From positions 1 to 60,784 of the forward strand of contig JAZDKC010000074.1 in assembly GCA_043803465.1 (NCBI GenBank): 60,784 bases of DNA. Direction: 5' to 3'. The first letter of the stretch is position 1, and each line of letters starts with the position of its first letter. Shown here one piece after another: positions 1,780-56,182 of the stretch. Both the position numbers and the translations under genes were made by a program. Origin of the DNA: Candidatus Micrarchaeota archaeon (GTDB lineage: Archaea; Micrarchaeota; Micrarchaeia; Norongarragalinales; SBBD01). A model generated the notes under the pieces. It saw only the letters and a program-made list of their open reading frames with translations. It did not search any database and was not told the origin of the DNA.

Positions 1780-1823
1780 AATTGAAGTCACGCTGCGGAA
1801 ATTTAATAAACTTCTCAAATTAA

Positions 1824-1875
1824 GGGGGGTGGGGGGATGCTAACACGGGCAGGGGCAAAGCCCCCGGGAGGTGTC
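1824..1875 (+). repeat. Hairpin element copy in the divergent kae1/DP1 promoter region
   Basis: G-tract..GCTAACACGGGCAGGGGCAAAGCCCCCGGGAGGTGTC, with TTTAATAAA-containing copies at 1802 and 1877. Confidence 0.8.
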
Positions 1876-1939
1876 GTTTAATAAATTTCCGCAAATAATA
1901 CAATATCGATAGGGGGGAATTCCGGTTTTTTTCGAATTT

Positions 1940-3454
1940 GTGATAACCATGCCTATTGACAGGGCTCAAATTCTGCTCATGCTGAAGGAGAAGGAGCTGA
2001 TGGCATCCCCGGAGGCGTTGGACGCGCTAATCAATTCGGACAACCCCGAGGCGATAATTGGAGAGCTCGCAAAAAGGAATATCATTGTCGCTGATTTTGA
2101 GCAGGTGCACGACATCATTGAAAGCAGGGGGGTGGATGAGAAGGTCGTGCAGGTCGAGGTTCTGCAGGAAACGAGCTACAATCCTGCTGCAAAAGGCGTG
2201 GAGGCCAAGCTAAATCTGTCAATCCGGAACGATGTGACCGGAAAATCACGATGCACAGGCAGCGTGGATGATTTCGTGAGGTATTTCAATGACAGATACG
2301 ATAAGCATCGCAGGAGCCTGAGGGGGATGGCAACAAATGGAGGCGGGCTTTCAACCATTCGGGATGTGAAAAATTACCTCAAAAACAAGGAGGCGCGGAT
2401 CATCACGATGGTTTACGACAAGCGCATCACCAAAAACGGCCACCTGATGTTTGATGTTGAGGACGACCAAAGCACTGCAAGCGTATTGGTGCCGAAGGAC
2501 TCGCAGCTGTTCTACGAGGCATCGCAAATCCTCAATGACGAGGTGGTCGCATTCGATGTGTACCACTCGAACTCCTCGCTTCTTATCGCAAAGAATTTCG
2601 TGAGGCCCGGAAGGCTGCTTCAGGAGCGCACGAAAAAACTCATTGACGAGGATATTGGCATCGGCTTCCTTTCGGATTTGCATGTGGGCTCGAAATTCTT
2701 CATGCAGGAGAATTTCCAGAAATTCCTCGAGTTCATGAACGGGAAGGGCACTGCGGCGCAAAGGGAGGTCGCGGGCAAAATCAAATATTTATGCTTCGGA
2801 GGGGACAATGTGGACGGAATCGGCGTTTTTCCGGGGCAGGAAAAGCAGCTGGTCACAAAAGGGATCCATACGCAATACGAAATATTCTGCGAATTCATAA
2901 AGAACATCCCGGAGCATGTCGAGATAATCATTGCGCCCGGGAATCATGATGCGGTAAGGACTGCGGAGCCGCAGCCTGCGCTCCCGCAGGAGTTCTGGGA
3001 GGCACTGAAAGGCTATAGCAACGTTCATTTTGTCGGCAATCCATCCGCTCACAACGTGCATGGCTTGGAACTTTTGGTTTACCACGGCACTTCCCTTGAC
3101 GGGATAATTTCACACACGCAAATGTACAAGGACGGCTATATACATCCTGAAAAAGTCGCGGTAGGGCTTTTGCAAAGGAAGCACCTCGCCCCGCTTTACG
3201 GGGAGGATCCGTTGGTGCCAGAAGCGCACGATTTCATGGTGATAGAGGAAACGCCGGACATGTTCCATTTCGGGCATGTGCACAAGAATGGGCATATTGA
3301 GAATTACAATGGCACGTTGATTGTTAATTCGGGGACATGGCAGGATAGGACGGATTACCAGGTGAGGCTGGGGCACATGCCAACGCCATGCATCCTGCCG
3401 ATTTACAGCATGAAGAGCGGGAAGCTGCAGCACATTGATTTCAAGGGGGTATAA
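1940..3454 (+). CDS. polB: DNA polymerase D small subunit DP1 (proofreading exonuclease)
   Basis: OB fold plus phosphoesterase motifs SDLHVGS, GDNVDG, PGNHD, YHG, GHVH; adjacent to DP2. Confidence 0.95.
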   Translation: MITMPIDRAQILLMLKEKELMASPEALDALINSDNPEAIIGELAKRNIIVADFEQVHDIIESRGVDEKVVQVEVLQETSYNPAAKGVEAKLNLSIRNDVTGKSRCTGSVDDFVRYFNDRYDKHRRSLRGMATNGGGLSTIRDVKNYLKNKEARIITMVYDKRITKNGHLMFDVEDDQSTASVLVPKDSQLFYEASQILNDEVVAFDVYHSNSSLLIAKNFVRPGRLLQERTKKLIDEDIGIGFLSDLHVGSKFFMQENFQKFLEFMNGKGTAAQREVAGKIKYLCFGGDNVDGIGVFPGQEKQLVTKGIHTQYEIFCEFIKNIPEHVEIIIAPGNHDAVRTAEPQPALPQEFWEALKGYSNVHFVGNPSAHNVHGLELLVYHGTSLDGIISHTQMYKDGYIHPEKVAVGLLQRKHLAPLYGEDPLVPEAHDFMVIEETPDMFHFGHVHKNGHIENYNGTLIVNSGTWQDRTDYQVRLGHMPTPCILPIYSMKSGKLQHIDFKGV

Positions 3455-3642
3455 AAATGCAAAATCAGGGGGGTAGGCGGCAAAACGAGTGGGGAACCGA
3501 AGGTGCCCCGGAGGTGTCGAGCACATTGATTTCAAGAAGTTTTAATTTACGCAAAACGGGGAGGGGAGAGGCGACACGAGTGGGGAACCGCAGGTGCCCC
3601 GGAGGTGTCGAGCACATTGATTTCAAGGGGGTATAAAAATGC
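3429..3642 (+). repeat. Tandem array with 91-bp period: two hairpin elements (3468-3518, 3558-3609) and three copies of the DP1 3' end
   Basis: AGCACATTGATTTCAAG at 3429, 3520 and 3611; 32-bp identity between 3429-3460 and 3611-3642. Confidence 0.92.
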
Positions 3643-6600
3643 CAGAAGCCAGCGAGATGATGCAGAAATATTTTACCGAGCTTGAAGGGAAGTTCGCTGA
3701 TGCGTGGGCCATCGCATCAGAGGCCAGGAAGAGGCATCTCGATCCGGCGGACATAATTGAAACGAGGCCCGCAAAGAACATTTTCAGCAGGGTGGAAGGA
3801 TTGGTGGGGCCAGTTGGGGTCGCCGCCAGAATAGAGGAGATAAGCGAAGGGAAATCGAGGGAGGAGCTGGTATTCGAGATTGCCAGGGAAATCATGGATG
3901 AGTTGGCATACAAGCCGGCAGGTTATGAAAACGAGCACGAAAAAAAGGAAAAGCTAATAGAGCAGGCAATAAGGACCGGCCTCGCATTATTCACGGAAGG
4001 GGTTGTGAGCGCGCCCATCGAAGGGATTTCACAGGTGAGGCTGAAAAAAAACGCGGATGGGACGGACTTCTTGGCGGTATATTTTGCCGGCCCGATCAGG
4101 GGCGCTGGCGGAACAGGCCAGGCATTTTCAGTGCTGCTTGCGGATTTTTGCAGGCAACATTTGCACATCGGGAATTACAGGCCCTCGGAAACGGAAATCG
4201 AGAGGTATATCGAGGAATCGAACCTGTATGCGATCAAAACGCGCGCAGGCCAATATGTGCCAACTGATGATGAGATCAGGCATATTGTGACCAATTGCGC
4301 GGTATGCATCACCGGGGAGCCAACTGAGGATTACGAGATCAACGTGCACAAGGACACATACAATGTGGAGAGCAACAGGGTAAGGGGCGGAATGTGCCTT
4401 GTTGTTTCGGAAGGGATCTGCCTGAAGGCTGCGAAGGTTTTGAAAATCTCAAGGAAGCACAACATTCAATGGGATTGGCTTGAAGCGCTGATCAAGGTAG
4501 CGAAAAAAGCAGCTGCTAAAACCGAGCTTAGGCCCATGGAAAAGTACATAGATGAAATCGTCGCAGGAAGGCCGATTTTCGCATACCCGATGGCTAGGGG
4601 CGGTTTCCGGTTGAGGTATGGAAGGACGAGATTCACAGGAATCGCGAGCAAGGCAGTTCATCCTGCGACAATGGTCGCGCTTGATGAGTTCCTTGCTTTC
4701 GGCACGCAGATGAAAATCGAGCGGCCCGGCAAGGGCTGCATTGTAACGCCATGCAGTGCAATCGAAGGCCCGACGGTAAGGCTGAAGAGCGGCGAAGTGA
4801 GGAAGCTTGAAACGAAAGAAGACGCATACCTATTGAAAAACGAGATTGAAAGGATCATTTTTGTGGGCGATCTGCTGGTTAATTACGGCGATTTCCTCAA
4901 GGCGAACCATCCATTGGTGCCTTCCGCATGGTGCGAGGAATGGTATCAGCTGGAATTGGACGCTAAGGGCGAGAAGAAAACAATAGAGCAGATAAAGCAC
5001 ATGACAGCGGATGAGGCATTTGCGCTTTCCCAAAAACTGCAAGTGCCGCTTGCGCCGAGCTACACGTACCATTACCACGATTTATCCGTGCAGGAATTAA
5101 GGCAGGCCGCGGAATGGCTTTGCAGCGGCAAGCTGATAAAGGAATGGTTTGATTTGAGGGGATACAGGGTCGAGAAAGCAGAAGGCGCAAAAAACAAGAA
5201 GGAATTGCTCGAAAGGCTGTGCGTTCCCCACAAAGTAGAGGGCGAATTCGTGGTAATCGAGAAAAACAATGCGATCGCACTCCTGAAAACCTTGGGGTTG
5301 CTCAAGGATACCCTGACAATGGACTTTTTTGACAAGCATTATTCCAAGGAAAAGGAGGTTATGGAGCTCGTGAATGAGCTTGCGGGAATCAAAATACACC
5401 GGAAAGTGGGGATTTACATCGGCGGAAGCCAGGGACGGCCTGAGAAGGCAAAGGAGCGCAAGATGAAGCCGCCCGTGCACTCATTATTCCCGGTCGGCGA
5501 ATGGGGCGGGAAATCACGCGGGCTCGTGAAGGCAAAGGGATTGCTCAAGGAGAAGGCAAACGGGATGATTGAAGAGGAAATGGAGATTTCAATCTGCCCA
5601 ATCTGCGGGAAAAAGGTGCTAGGAAGGATTTGCGAAAGCTGCAATGAGCTTGCGGAAAGGAGGAGCAAGTGCCCCAATCCAAGGTGCAATTCAGTTGGCG
5701 GGGCAAGCCAGGAAAAGTGCATCAAATGCGGCTCGAACATGCAAAAATATGAGAAGCAGGTCGTGGGTTTTGTGGATGCATTTGAAAGAGCCGAGGCGAA
5801 GGTGAGTTTCAAGCCGGAAGAAGTGAAAGGCGTGCAGGGATTGATTTCAGCGACAAAAACCCCCGAAGCACTTGAGAAAGGGATCCTCCGGGCGAAGCAT
5901 GGCCTTTCCGTTTTCCGGGATGGCACTTGCAGGTTTGATGCAACAGAAATTCCCTCCACCCACTTCATCCCTTCGGAAATCAACATTTCAATAGAAAAAT
6001 TGCATGAACTGGGGTATGGGAAAGATATACATGGCAATCCGGTCACATCCTTGGACCAGGTAATCGAAATGAAGGCACAGGACGTCATTATTTCGGACTA
6101 TGCGGCGGAATATTTCATGCGGGTTTCTAATTTCATCGATGACCTTCTTGTTTACCAGTATGGCGCCCGCGCATATTACAACGCAAAGAAATCCGAGGAC
6201 CTGATCGGGAAATTGCTCATTGGGATCGCGCCGCATACTTCCGCCGGAATCCTTTGCCGCGTGATCGGGTATTCCAAAATAAGGGGCATAATTGCGCACC
6301 CGTACCTGCATTGCGCCGCAAGGAGGAATTGCGATGGCGATGAATTGTCGTATATTTTGCTGCTGGATGCATTGCTTAATTTCTCCAAATTATTCCTGCC
6401 CGAAACGCGCGGCGGGCAAATGGATGCATTATTGGTATTGACCACCATCCTCGACCCGAATGAAATCGATGATGGGGCGCATGCAATGGACTGCACAACG
6501 CAATACCCGTTGGAATTCTATGAGATGAGCCTTAGGCTTGCAGCGCCAAGCGAGGCGAAAATCGAAAAGGTTGCGGACCGGCTCGGGACGCAGGCGCAAT

Positions 6601-7070
6601 ATGAAAATATCAATTACACCCATTTCGCGAAATTAGAAGGCCCGATTGAAACAAGGTACGTCCAGCTCACCAACATGAAGGAGAAGGTGGACGCGGAGTT
6701 GGAGCTGATGGGCAAAATTGCGGCGGTGGATGTGAGGAACGCGACGGAGCGGATCATACTCTCGCATTTCTTCCCGGACCTGTATGGAAACCTGCGCAAA
6801 TTCTCGAAGCAAAAATTCCGGTGCGTCGATTGCGGCATGAAATTCCGGAGGGTGCCCTTGCAGGGCAAGTGCTTCAAGTGCGGGGGGAAATTGCTGCTCA
6901 CGGTGAACAAGGGCGGGATCACCAAATACCTCGAACTCTCGAAATCGCTGGTGGAAAAATACGAGCTGCCCGACTACCTGAGGCAGAGGCTGATGCTGAT
7001 CGAGAGGGAGATCAAGAGCATTTTCGAGGATGAAAAAGTCAAACAATTCAGCTTGAGCGATTATGCATAA
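3639..7070 (+). CDS. polC: DNA polymerase D large subunit DP2
   Basis: AGPIRGAGGT, GGFRLRYGR, RRNCDGDE, CxxC zinc modules; no intein apparent. Confidence 0.96.
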   Translation: MPEASEMMQKYFTELEGKFADAWAIASEARKRHLDPADIIETRPAKNIFSRVEGLVGPVGVAARIEEISEGKSREELVFEIAREIMDELAYKPAGYENEHEKKEKLIEQAIRTGLALFTEGVVSAPIEGISQVRLKKNADGTDFLAVYFAGPIRGAGGTGQAFSVLLADFCRQHLHIGNYRPSETEIERYIEESNLYAIKTRAGQYVPTDDEIRHIVTNCAVCITGEPTEDYEINVHKDTYNVESNRVRGGMCLVVSEGICLKAAKVLKISRKHNIQWDWLEALIKVAKKAAAKTELRPMEKYIDEIVAGRPIFAYPMARGGFRLRYGRTRFTGIASKAVHPATMVALDEFLAFGTQMKIERPGKGCIVTPCSAIEGPTVRLKSGEVRKLETKEDAYLLKNEIERIIFVGDLLVNYGDFLKANHPLVPSAWCEEWYQLELDAKGEKKTIEQIKHMTADEAFALSQKLQVPLAPSYTYHYHDLSVQELRQAAEWLCSGKLIKEWFDLRGYRVEKAEGAKNKKELLERLCVPHKVEGEFVVIEKNNAIALLKTLGLLKDTLTMDFFDKHYSKEKEVMELVNELAGIKIHRKVGIYIGGSQGRPEKAKERKMKPPVHSLFPVGEWGGKSRGLVKAKGLLKEKANGMIEEEMEISICPICGKKVLGRICESCNELAERRSKCPNPRCNSVGGASQEKCIKCGSNMQKYEKQVVGFVDAFERAEAKVSFKPEEVKGVQGLISATKTPEALEKGILRAKHGLSVFRDGTCRFDATEIPSTHFIPSEINISIEKLHELGYGKDIHGNPVTSLDQVIEMKAQDVIISDYAAEYFMRVSNFIDDLLVYQYGARAYYNAKKSEDLIGKLLIGIAPHTSAGILCRVIGYSKIRGIIAHPYLHCAARRNCDGDELSYILLLDALLNFSKLFLPETRGGQMDALLVLTTILDPNEIDDGAHAMDCTTQYPLEFYEMSLRLAAPSEAKIEKVADRLGTQAQYENINYTHFAKLEGPIETRYVQLTNMKEKVDAELELMGKIAAVDVRNATERIILSHFFPDLYGNLRKFSKQKFRCVDCGMKFRRVPLQGKCFKCGGKLLLTVNKGGITKYLELSKSLVEKYELPDYLRQRLMLIEREIKSIFEDEKVKQFSLSDYA

Positions 7071-44912: not shown

Positions 44913-45168
44913 GCAACGCCTCCGGGGGACCGGTTGCCCCTACTCGTGTTGCCCCTACCCCTTCTGATTTTGAATACCTTTATAACCGGCAACTCCCAAA
45001 ACAATAACGCAGTCTTCCAGATAGCCGGGGAGCTAAGGGATTCGACACCCACAGGGGAATGGCTTCCCCTCCACGTGTCGCCGCCACCCCTTCCGATTTT
45101 GAATACATTTATAACCGGCAACTCCCAAAACAATAACGCAGTCTTCCAGATAGCCGGGGAGCTAAGGG
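44913..45168 (-). repeat. 129-bp period duplication: two hairpin elements (44913-44961, 45044-45090) plus a duplicated SRP promoter/5' end
   Basis: 83-bp repeats at 44957-45039 and 45086-45168, 2 mismatches. Confidence 0.92.
45108..45114 (+). promoter_or_regulatory. TATA box of the SRP RNA gene (duplicated at 44979)
   Basis: TTTATAA ~24 nt upstream of the predicted RNA 5' end. Confidence 0.7.
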
Positions 45169-55488: not shown

Positions 55489-55959
55489 ATGCGATGCCCG
55501 TACTGCACACATATGGAAACGAAGGTTCTCGATTCAAGGGATGCGGAGGACCTGGCGGTTACAAGGCGCAGAAGGGAGTGCGAAAAGTGTGAGAAGCGTT
55601 TCACAACATATGAGCGGGTGGAATTCCTGGACTTGGTTGTCAGGAAGAAGGATGGCAAGACCGAGCCCTTTGACCGAAAGAAGATTGAAACGGGAATGCT
55701 CAAGGCGTGCGAGAAGCGGCCAATAAGCCGGGAGAAGATCGAGGAGCTCGTGGATGAGATGGAGCGCGACATCCGCAAGAAGGAGGGCACAGAGATCCCA
55801 ACACAGGAGATTGGGGAGCTTGTTATAGAGAAGCTCAAGAAGCTCGACAAGGTCGCATACATCAGGTTCGCAAGCGTGTACCGTGAATTCACGGACCTGA
55901 ATGAGTTTGAATCGGAAATGAAGAAATTGCTCAAGAAGAGCGAAAGAGTGGAGAAATGA
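55489..55959 (+). CDS. nrdR: Transcriptional repressor NrdR
   Basis: MRCPYC..TKVLDSR..RRRECEKCEKRFTTYE, ATP cone, VAYIRFASVYREF. Confidence 0.95.
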   Translation: MRCPYCTHMETKVLDSRDAEDLAVTRRRRECEKCEKRFTTYERVEFLDLVVRKKDGKTEPFDRKKIETGMLKACEKRPISREKIEELVDEMERDIRKKEGTEIPTQEIGELVIEKLKKLDKVAYIRFASVYREFTDLNEFESEMKKLLKKSERVEK

Positions 55960-56081
55960 AATGGCAAATATGAAGGGGTAAGGCGACACGATAGGGGAAA
56001 CGTAGTTGCCCCTCAGGTGTCATGAAGAAATTGCTCAAGAAGAGCGAAAGAGTGGAGAAATGAAATGGCAAATATGAAGGG
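55918..56081 (+). repeat. Perfect 60-bp duplication of the nrdR 3' end around a hairpin element (55975-56021)
   Basis: 55918-55977 = 56022-56081; element GGGGTAAGGCGACACGATAGGGGAAACGTAGTTGCCCCTCAGGTGTC. Confidence 0.93.
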
Positions 56082-56182
56082 ATTCGTTGGAGTTCAGGCA
56101 TTTTGCAGCGGAAATTGGGGGCCAGGTCCATGTTAATAAATACAATAATTCAGCAAATTCACGCACAGGGGGGTGATATTGC

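Follow-up and report, generated by a model that had tools for sequence, protein, structure and literature searches.

The window analysed here is a stretch of 60,784 nucleotides (nt) of contig JAZDKC010000074.1 from a Candidatus Micrarchaeota archaeon (assembly GCA_043803465.1), and it carries the genes of the small (DP1) and large (DP2) subunits of the DNA polymerase PolD. PolD is essential as the replicative polymerase in these archaea, where the genes of its two subunits normally lie side by side. In the window they are separated by an array in which pieces of the gene junction alternate with two copies of a small hairpin element (Table 1). The junction segment AGCACATTGATTTCAAGGGGGTATAAAAATGC occurs at 3429-3460 and again, identical at 32/32 nt, at 3611-3642. 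A middle copy (3520-3551) shows 69% identity overall, with its first 17 nt identical, and the three copies follow each other at a start-to-start distance of 91 nt each time. The intervening segments, 3461-3519 and 3552-3610, share 83% identity in an 84-nt alignment. An earlier description made from the letters of this DNA only, hereafter the sequence-only reading, had reported an exact 91-nt period in the order DP1 end, element, HIDFKKF*, element, HIDFKGV* and DP2 ATG (asterisks denote stops), which was seen again and repeats as described. It had also noted that the middle copy keeps a stop at the same codon position, and translation in the DP1 frame, which gives HIDFKKF* against HIDFKGV*, confirmed this. 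A 38-nt pattern of the element core matched twice in the window, compared with 0.00 matches expected from 100 shuffles, which excludes a chance origin. Tandem Repeats Finder (min_score 30, positions 2500-4500) returned 0 rows, presumably because the array comprises only ~2.3 units that are partly divergent. We consider it likely that the array consists of two copies of a small non-coding hairpin repeat, specific to one family of Micrarchaeota within the DPANN archaea, that settled at the PolD junction.

Table 1. Features at and around the DP1/DP2 junction, with positions in the window (ORF, open reading frame; R1, covariance model of the element; A1, alignment of 55 element copies).
Feature	Position	Strand	Evidence and remarks
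DP1, PolD small subunit	1940..3454	+	ORF; Pfam DNA_pol_E_B 8.9e-13, Metallophos 1.2e-08; ends HIDFKGV*, stop 3452-3454
X1, first 32-nt junction copy	3429..3460	+	Last 8 DP1 codons, TAA, AA, ATGC; gives the working DP1 end
E1, hairpin element with short leader and weakened outer stem (AAAAC/GUGUC)	3461..3519	+	R1 46.6 bits, E 9.5e-13 at 3464-3519; alignment A1
X2, partial junction copy, 17 nt AGCACATTGATTTCAAG	3520..3536	+	18-nt direct repeat around the second element in the flank comparison
E2, hairpin element	3537..3610	+	A/T-rich leader 3537-3554 ('KF*' in the DP1 frame), core 3555-3610; R1 62.8 bits, E 9.9e-18
X3, third junction copy	3611..3642	+	100% identical to X1; supplies the DP2 ribosome-binding region and ATG
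DP2, PolD large catalytic subunit	3639..7070	+	ORF; Pfam PolC_DP2_N, PolC_DP2_central, PolC_DP2_cat, E 4e-96 to 9e-122
59-codon ORF created by the array	3457..3636	+	Opens at the duplicated DP2 ATG, runs through both elements and closes at the duplicated DP1 TAA (3634-3636)
Weak, older element copy upstream of DP1	1819..1876	+	R1 24.8 bits, E 4.5e-06; in the divergent spacer between DP1 and a Kae1/TsaD-like gene

The element (55-75 nt, non-coding, multicopy) belongs to a family that is dispersed in the genome from which the window comes (G000; 1.40 Mb in 91 contigs, 90.7% complete). It was located at 23 places with BLAST, at 58 with an nhmmer profile (E<1e-3) and at 67 with R1. Matches to R1 were present in 10/10 other genomes of the same GTDB family, with 5-68 in each, and in just 2/50 genomes from other families of the order. 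Elsewhere in the window R1 copies lay at 55967, 45043, 44914 and 39842, and weakly at 1819. [quoted passage not shown]

The 55 copies in A1 have the consensus A.TAAGGGGGGTAGAGGCGACACGAGTAGGGGA..TA..TCCCCT.GAGGTGTCG. Analysis of A1 with RNAalifold showed a nested hairpin of 13 pairs, 9 of which carry compensatory changes; as the outermost pair, 35 copies have G-C and 19 have A-U. Paired cells amounted to 93.8%, compared with 41-57% when the 3' partner was slid by 1-3 columns, and 114 double changes were counted, compared with 35.3 ± 5.5 in column shuffles (0/500 reached 114). The covariation fits an RNA hairpin and a single-stranded DNA hairpin alike, and counts of G-U versus A-C made by hand, with one doubtful pair set aside, gave no clear RNA or DNA strand signal. 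In addition to the stem, A1 columns 15-17 and 25-28 co-vary in three states that are not Watson-Crick (GAGGC+ACGAG, GGGGC+ACGCG, GCGGC+ACGTG), which may be a subfamily mark or a tertiary contact. A long variant of the element was observed in G000 at C48:23155-23211, C17:1379-1435 and about 1500-1620 of contig C21. It has ~42 extra nt in the 5' side of the outer stem that form two further small hairpins, and by eye these extra stems differ among copies and still pair. Rfam gave no relevant match on 3300-3800 or on the long variant, the best E values being 3.4 and 0.53, far below the gathering scores.

The 5' end of the element is variable, because just 12/55 copies carry all of the A/T-rich leader motif TAATTCGCA (with up to one substitution; the motif is found in 106/20000 random windows). 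Most copies keep the proximal part of the leader alone. Among the 12 full-leader copies, stops close all three forward frames in 4, two frames in 6 and one frame in 2, and capping of a truncated reading frame by the leader is common, not universal. Near one end of the element most copies carry GTAG (GGGGTAGAGGC); the A1 consensus (GGGGTAGAGGCGACAC) places it 5' of the outer stem at a distance of several nt, and E2 lacks it (GGGGAGAGG).

The arrangement of an element between two copies of its target is not confined to the PolD junction. For each of the 55 copies, 110 nt upstream were compared with 110 nt downstream, and the 99th percentile of 3000 random genome positions served as the cut-off. 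Flanking direct repeats above this cut-off were present at 31/55 copies and were 18-93 nt long. In 27/31 the downstream repeat copy begins 0-8 nt past the GGTGTY 3' end of the element; E1, which was scored against the far junction copy, falls outside this range. The first duplicated base is a purine in 23/27, which the element's own terminal purine may explain. The mismatches between target copies are 3-periodic. Among pairs with at least 3 mismatches, 54/75 differences lie in the dominant phase of their pair, compared with 39.3 ± 2.4 under the null (0/20000 simulations reached 54), with 5/7 at C40:16908 and 11/14 at C60:4868 as examples. According to rough gene calls of our own, 34 of the copy differences are synonymous, 18 are non-synonymous and 34 lie outside called genes, where the caller visibly mis-framed some of the 'non-synonymous' and 'non-coding' cases; C33:46758 and C60:4868 are mostly synonymous by eye. 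Because both copies look diverged while coding, recombination with diverged lineages is part of the history of the family. The target copies at DP1/DP2 show zero differences (32/32 and 17/17).

Several further copies were inspected individually. At 55907-56082 (+), with the element core at 55967-56022, a gene junction is present as two perfect 60-nt copies, one on either side of the element. The junction consists of a gene end (...SERVEK*) and the next start (MKG...), and in the duplicated start three codons are followed by a TAA that belongs to the element. A second tandem pair occupies 44914-45097 (-) and is composed of different subfamilies (GCGGC/ACGTG and GGGGC/ACGAG); the upstream element of this 45043/44914 pair lies between 93-nt repeats with 5 mismatches, in the same architecture as at DP1/DP2. 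The copy at 1819-1876 is flanked on both sides by TTTAATAAA. On other contigs of G000, elements lie precisely where one subunit or pathway gene meets the next, namely at fumarase N/C, 2-oxoacid dehydrogenase E1 alpha/beta and lipoyl synthase/E1 alpha (C42:1249, C72:17333, C72:18612), and these parallel the DP1/DP2 case. The genes between nearby element copies are housekeeping genes (fumarase, E1 dehydrogenase, lipoyl synthase, KaiC-like, flavodoxin and PEP-utilising enzymes). At five repeat-free copies (C40:37121, C71:11796, C12:14626, C4:5307 and C76:235) the element end GTGTCA/GTGTTA overlaps the stop of a converging gene; the overlapped stops are TGA/TAA on the other strand, at a distance of -3 in our own gene calls.

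At the PolD junction each element adjoins a duplicated piece of the junction, and both genes therefore stay whole, DP1 with the end native to it and DP2 with its own ribosome-binding region and start. Between the DP1 stop and the DP2 start there are now 184 nt, compared with 2 nt in the inferred empty site. The 59-codon ORF created by the array is without a Pfam family and stops 2 nt before the real DP2 ATG. With a single unit, the ORF from the duplicated DP2 ATG would by arithmetic be out of register, because 91-5 is not divisible by 3, and would read into DP2; selection for the ORF register at this junction is speculation. The sequence-only reading had proposed that the array uncouples DP1 from DP2. 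The uncoupling is uncertain: the gap has widened, and the 59-codon ORF ends just before the DP2 ATG.

The two units of the array are mosaic. They differ at 11 positions, and a comparison at an offset of 91 showed mismatches at 10/24 positions in the 5' part, compared with 1/52 in the 3' half together with the 17-nt target (Fisher p 1.8e-5). In A1 the 3' halves of E1 and E2 are mutual nearest relatives (1 difference; next nearest 5), while for their 5' halves the nearest relatives are copies from other contigs and not each other. The middle junction copy had been taken by the sequence-only reading for an alternative DP1 C-terminus kept in store. Just 17 nt of it (AGCAC...CAAG) are target, and it reads 'HIDFK-KF*' because these are followed by the E2 leader TTTTAATTTACGCAAAAC, a variant of TAATTCGCA; the outer copies, being identical, are without allelic information. 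The same reading had proposed serial invasion at one site with displacement of the previous gene end at each event. Repeated insertion at one junction point, with each unit adding a junction copy, agrees with the layout, and the part that does not stand is the displacement, since the middle copy contains no displaced DP1 end.

From this anatomy we infer both the order of events and their enzymology. The ancestral junction would have read ...HIDFKGV-TAA-AA-ATG(DP2). In the simplest account, E1 would have entered it with a 32-nt duplication of the junction, after which the upstream copy would hold the DP1 end and stop, and the downstream copy the DP2 ribosome-binding region and start. In a second event, the E2 leader and 5' half would have been copied in after nt 17 of the downstream junction copy, and synthesis would then have resumed inside the resident E1, so that its 3' half was copied again together with the 17 nt of junction after it. 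The exact 91-nt period would follow from this, because the 3' half of E2 and the next 17 nt were copied from the resident E1-junction, and the middle HIDFKKF* would be a by-product of joining the target to an element leader. Two fully independent insertions, as another origin of the array, would need the same target boundary twice despite the lack of a clear target motif.

The PolD junction was compared among relatives, with DP1 orthologues in 40/40 of the relatives searched and 75-80% identity in six congeners. With filters off, R1 gave no match at the DP1/DP2 junction in any of these six congeners, and the insertion is therefore specific to the lineage of the window. Congener G006 has a compact single-copy junction, TAAAAATTATG, in which TAA-AAATT-ATG leaves a spacing of 5 nt, and the inferred empty site TAA-AA-ATG resembles it, in a comparison between species and not between strains. 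In G004 DP1 and DP2 are about 30 nt apart, and in the other four congeners they are separated by an A/G-rich spacer of 124-239 nt, so that the spacing within the genus ranges from 5 nt (G006) to about 240 nt. The sequence-only reading had named alternative DP1 ends in relatives as a check, and a second copy of the DP1 end is present in two of them. In G005 (locus L022) the DP1 end is present twice with 17/20 nt (2/1000 shuffles score as well) and in G009 (L030) with 21/23 nt by our own count of the alignment (0/1000 shuffles); in both, the spare DP1 end is diverged and follows downstream of the working stop, and no element can be recognised between the two copies. By eye, the spare end in G005 is closer to the DP1 end of G006 than to that of G005 itself. 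The DP1/DP2 junction has thus been disturbed repeatedly in this family. As for unit number, which the same reading had singled out for comparison, the element is absent from the junction in the six congeners and G006 has the compact single-copy form. Matches to R1 were also observed upstream of DP1 in G005 and G003, at the place that corresponds to 1819-1876, and that insertion therefore looks older than the genus.

The exact 91-nt period, together with the near-identity of the 3' element half and 17-nt target in both units (1/52), could also be explained by a single insertion of the element with its 32-nt duplication, doubled by replication slippage or unequal crossing-over and followed by mutational divergence. 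Such a history is quite improbable, since the divergence is as uneven as given above (10/24 versus 1/52, Fisher p 1.8e-5), the 5' halves of E1 and E2 have different nearest relatives elsewhere in the genome, and the middle junction copy turns into a family-typical leader after 17 nt, which mutation of GGGGTATAAAAATGC would not produce. A repeat-induced mis-join could have added units during assembly, given that the element is a multi-copy repeat and the genome a metagenome-assembled genome of 91 contigs. We consider this the most remote of the explanations weighed here, because the 11 differences between the units and the joining of mid-gene sequence to the element 3' end are not expected from a mis-join of dispersed copies, the same layout of target, element and target recurs at 31/55 copies, and the family is present in independently assembled relatives. 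In its strong form the sequence-only reading implied that invasions brought in foreign DP1 ends and pushed the resident ends downstream, as fungal mitochondrial mobile ORFs do, the array storing the displaced ends. At other loci of G000 the gene-end copies do differ mainly at one codon phase (54/75; 0/20000), as allelic ends of diverged lineages would, and the diverged second DP1 ends in G005 and G009 point in the same direction. At DP1/DP2 the outer copies are identical and the middle one passes from 17 shared nt into an element leader, so that no alternative coding end is present; moreover, the element (55-75 nt) encodes neither a homing endonuclease nor anything else, and 7 examined loci of the DUF559 nuclease contained 0 R1 matches. 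This model is therefore unlikely, if less so than the others.

Alternatively, the units may be a functional RNA feature of the PolD operon, that is a processed small-RNA array, an intercistronic stabiliser or attenuator, or an array of CRISPR type. The hairpin is conserved with covariation, elements are often found at junctions of co-transcribed subunit genes such as the three named above, and the element 3' end carries GGAGGTG, which we take to resemble a ribosome-binding site. The covariation is expected for a DNA hairpin as well, and no Rfam family matches the element. Its absence from the PolD junction in all six congeners indicates that it is not needed for PolD expression, and its orientation is mixed, the upstream gene lying on the same strand in 32 cases and on the opposite strand in 21 (crude gene calls of our own). 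The repeat/spacer-like array of the sequence-only reading is not supported, as its 'spacers' are members of a dispersed family, its 'repeats' derive from the local genes and a search of G000 for Cas1 gave no match. A role as functional RNA is very improbable.

A number of observations weigh against the reading of the array as two insertions of a mobile hairpin repeat. The fold of the element is no more stable than that of shuffled sequence (z 0.29 and -1.37; the sequences are G-rich), and the case for the structure therefore rests on the covariation. No significant flanking repeat was present at 24/55 copies, and no clear target motif was seen at the duplication boundaries. The 3-periodicity of the mismatches is not predicted by plain in-situ duplication with decay of the unused copy and needs recombination with diverged alleles. 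The two-unit array was seen in a metagenome assembly; among metagenome contigs, an exact 27-nt junction pattern gave 0 matches, and a degenerate HIDFKGV* pattern gave 5 loci that were all AT-rich, had no blastn similarity to the window and were unrelated. Finally, G000, which is 90.7% complete, gave 0 matches to RVT_1 (PF00078), Y1_Tnp (PF01797), TnpB, Cas1 (PF01867), Phage_integrase/tyrosine recombinase and IS110. No mobilising enzyme was thus identified, and the involvement of a break-repair polymerase is a putative one.

The sole transposase in G000 is an IS5-like DDE gene (DDE_Tnp_1; C17:8721-10021, 403 aa). No inverted repeat resembling the element and no matching ends were found around it, and on the IS1634 model NF033559 it scored 27.4 bits, compared with a cut-off of 100, its best model being IS5. 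An element copy lies 14 nt past its stop, and several TTTATGTGCA-like short repeats adjoin it. DUF559 is represented in G000 only by a weak C-terminal domain of a conserved ~1270-aa protein and is not associated with the element (0 R1 matches in the 7 DUF559 loci of the family). A mobilising partner on unassembled DNA, in a virus or in a host cell is possible.

Any mechanism has to account for the fixed 3' end, the variable 5' end, the long and variable duplications, the re-use of a resident element and the missing transposase. The mechanism that we favour, although it is less likely than not, needs no dedicated transposase: the element would spread through templated insertion, with template switching where DNA is broken or nicked. 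A free 3' end would pair, through microhomology, with some part of an element copy's leader, and the variable 5' end would result; copying would proceed to the base of the hairpin, giving the fixed 3' end; and synthesis would return to the chromosome upstream of the break, giving a long target duplication of variable length. Because the long duplication rebuilds both gene ends, such insertions could survive in a gene-dense genome. The alternatives are target-primed reverse transcription, with a reverse transcriptase that escaped the search, a transposase whose cuts are widely staggered, and import of a gene end together with an element from diverged strains. Because the differences are 3-periodic, recombination between lineages is required under any of these mechanisms.

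Taken together, and more tentatively, the element may mark an undescribed, transposase-independent form of DNA movement in ultra-small archaea, in which a free DNA end would take a resident hairpin as template and rejoin the chromosome upstream, producing long duplications by which gene ends are rebuilt. Resident elements may then act as re-entry points, so that heterogeneous tandem units build up, and exchange with diverged lineages may leave 'allelic' spare gene ends. At DP1/DP2, the second unit may have been kept since it returns the decoy ORF to a frame that stops 2 nt before the DP2 start, which would restore translational coupling between the PolD subunits.

The DP1/DP2 array illustrates that repeat elements can enter the PolD junction twice without damage: long target duplications let selfish DNA colonise a gene-dense genome (~87% coding in crude gene calls of our own). 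Long variable duplications, spare ends that differ synonymously and the lack of a recognisable mobilising enzyme were not found in combination in the literature searched, including the available parts of MITE and repetitive extragenic palindrome (REP) papers. Knowledge of the element's mechanism could uncover a way in which DNA moves by break repair or template switching, and could also provide a marker of recombination between uncultured DPANN lineages. In annotation, ORFs that are short and gene ends that look 'alternative' should be regarded as by-products where they lie beside such elements.

Compared with known systems, the array differs from one of CRISPR type in that its 'spacers' are 83% alike and come from a family of 58-67 copies, its 'repeats' are a gene junction and cas1 (PF01867) is missing. 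The allele-type differences at other loci of the family (54/75 in one codon phase) are reminiscent of gene-end replacement by mobile ORFs, whereas DP1/DP2 shows 0 differences in 32 nt and the element is non-coding. Retroposition of short interspersed nuclear elements (SINEs) by target-primed reverse transcription produces a fixed 3' end, variable 5' truncation and target duplications of variable length around a small structured non-coding unit. The element family shares the fixed 3' end, the variable 5' end, the variable duplications and the small structured unit; unlike SINEs, it has no A-rich 3' tail, and the assembly contains no reverse transcriptase (PF00078, 0 matches). Insertion sequences (IS) of the IS1634 group are autonomous elements of ~1.9 kb with long, variable direct repeats. 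They resemble the family in their long target duplications of variable length and differ in being autonomous with a DDE transposase, the lone DDE gene of G000 being IS5-like and reaching 27.4 bits on the IS1634 model against the cut-off of 100.

Insertion with long and variable target duplication was reportedly described by Nobusato et al. in 2000. In the available part of a later account by Furuta et al. in 2010 (PMC2853133), the direct repeats exceed 30 bp, vary in length and are single-copy in the empty-site genome, no transposase or mobile-element gene is involved, and the repeats often overlap gene 3' ends. The inserts described there are kilobase restriction-modification gene complexes in bacteria, and no archaeal case survived the selection made there. 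The 32-nt repeat at DP1/DP2 and the single compact junction of G006, the latter in a species-level comparison, fit what that part of the source reports, whereas the insert here is a 150-nt non-coding repeat without restriction or modification genes, and the family is a 55-75-nt hairpin in dozens of copies with duplications from 17 nt.

REP sequences and REPINs, which are mobilised by RAYT transposases of the Y1 HUH type, are, in the accessible text of PMC3733652, short abundant extragenic hairpins with compensatory stem changes and GTAG near one end, often between convergent or co-transcribed genes, all of which the element shares, with GTAG in most copies. It differs from them in that the assembly has no Y1/RAYT gene (PF01797, 0 matches). 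Its GTAG is set several nt apart from the stem, and E2 does not have it; neither 'target site' nor 'duplication' is a term used in that accessible text. Prokaryotic MITEs, as presented in the available sections of PMC10969869, are likewise non-autonomous, <500 bp, multicopy and hairpin-forming, have direct target repeats when young and can create or cap small ORFs. The MITEs in those sections have terminal inverted repeats matching a parent IS, and their target duplications are short and of one fixed length, whereas the searches gave no parent IS for the element, its 5' end varies and its duplications span 17-93 nt (32 and 17 nt at DP1/DP2). A 2026 survey of archaeal IS elements (PMC13343696) mentions Micrarchaeota, in the part available, only for their content of IS and eukaryote-like transposons. 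Within these partly available sources, the nearest published pattern to the element family is insertion with long target duplication (PMC2853133). The DP1/DP2 locus is a new instance of the element family, and the family is a new variant of small non-autonomous repeat elements.

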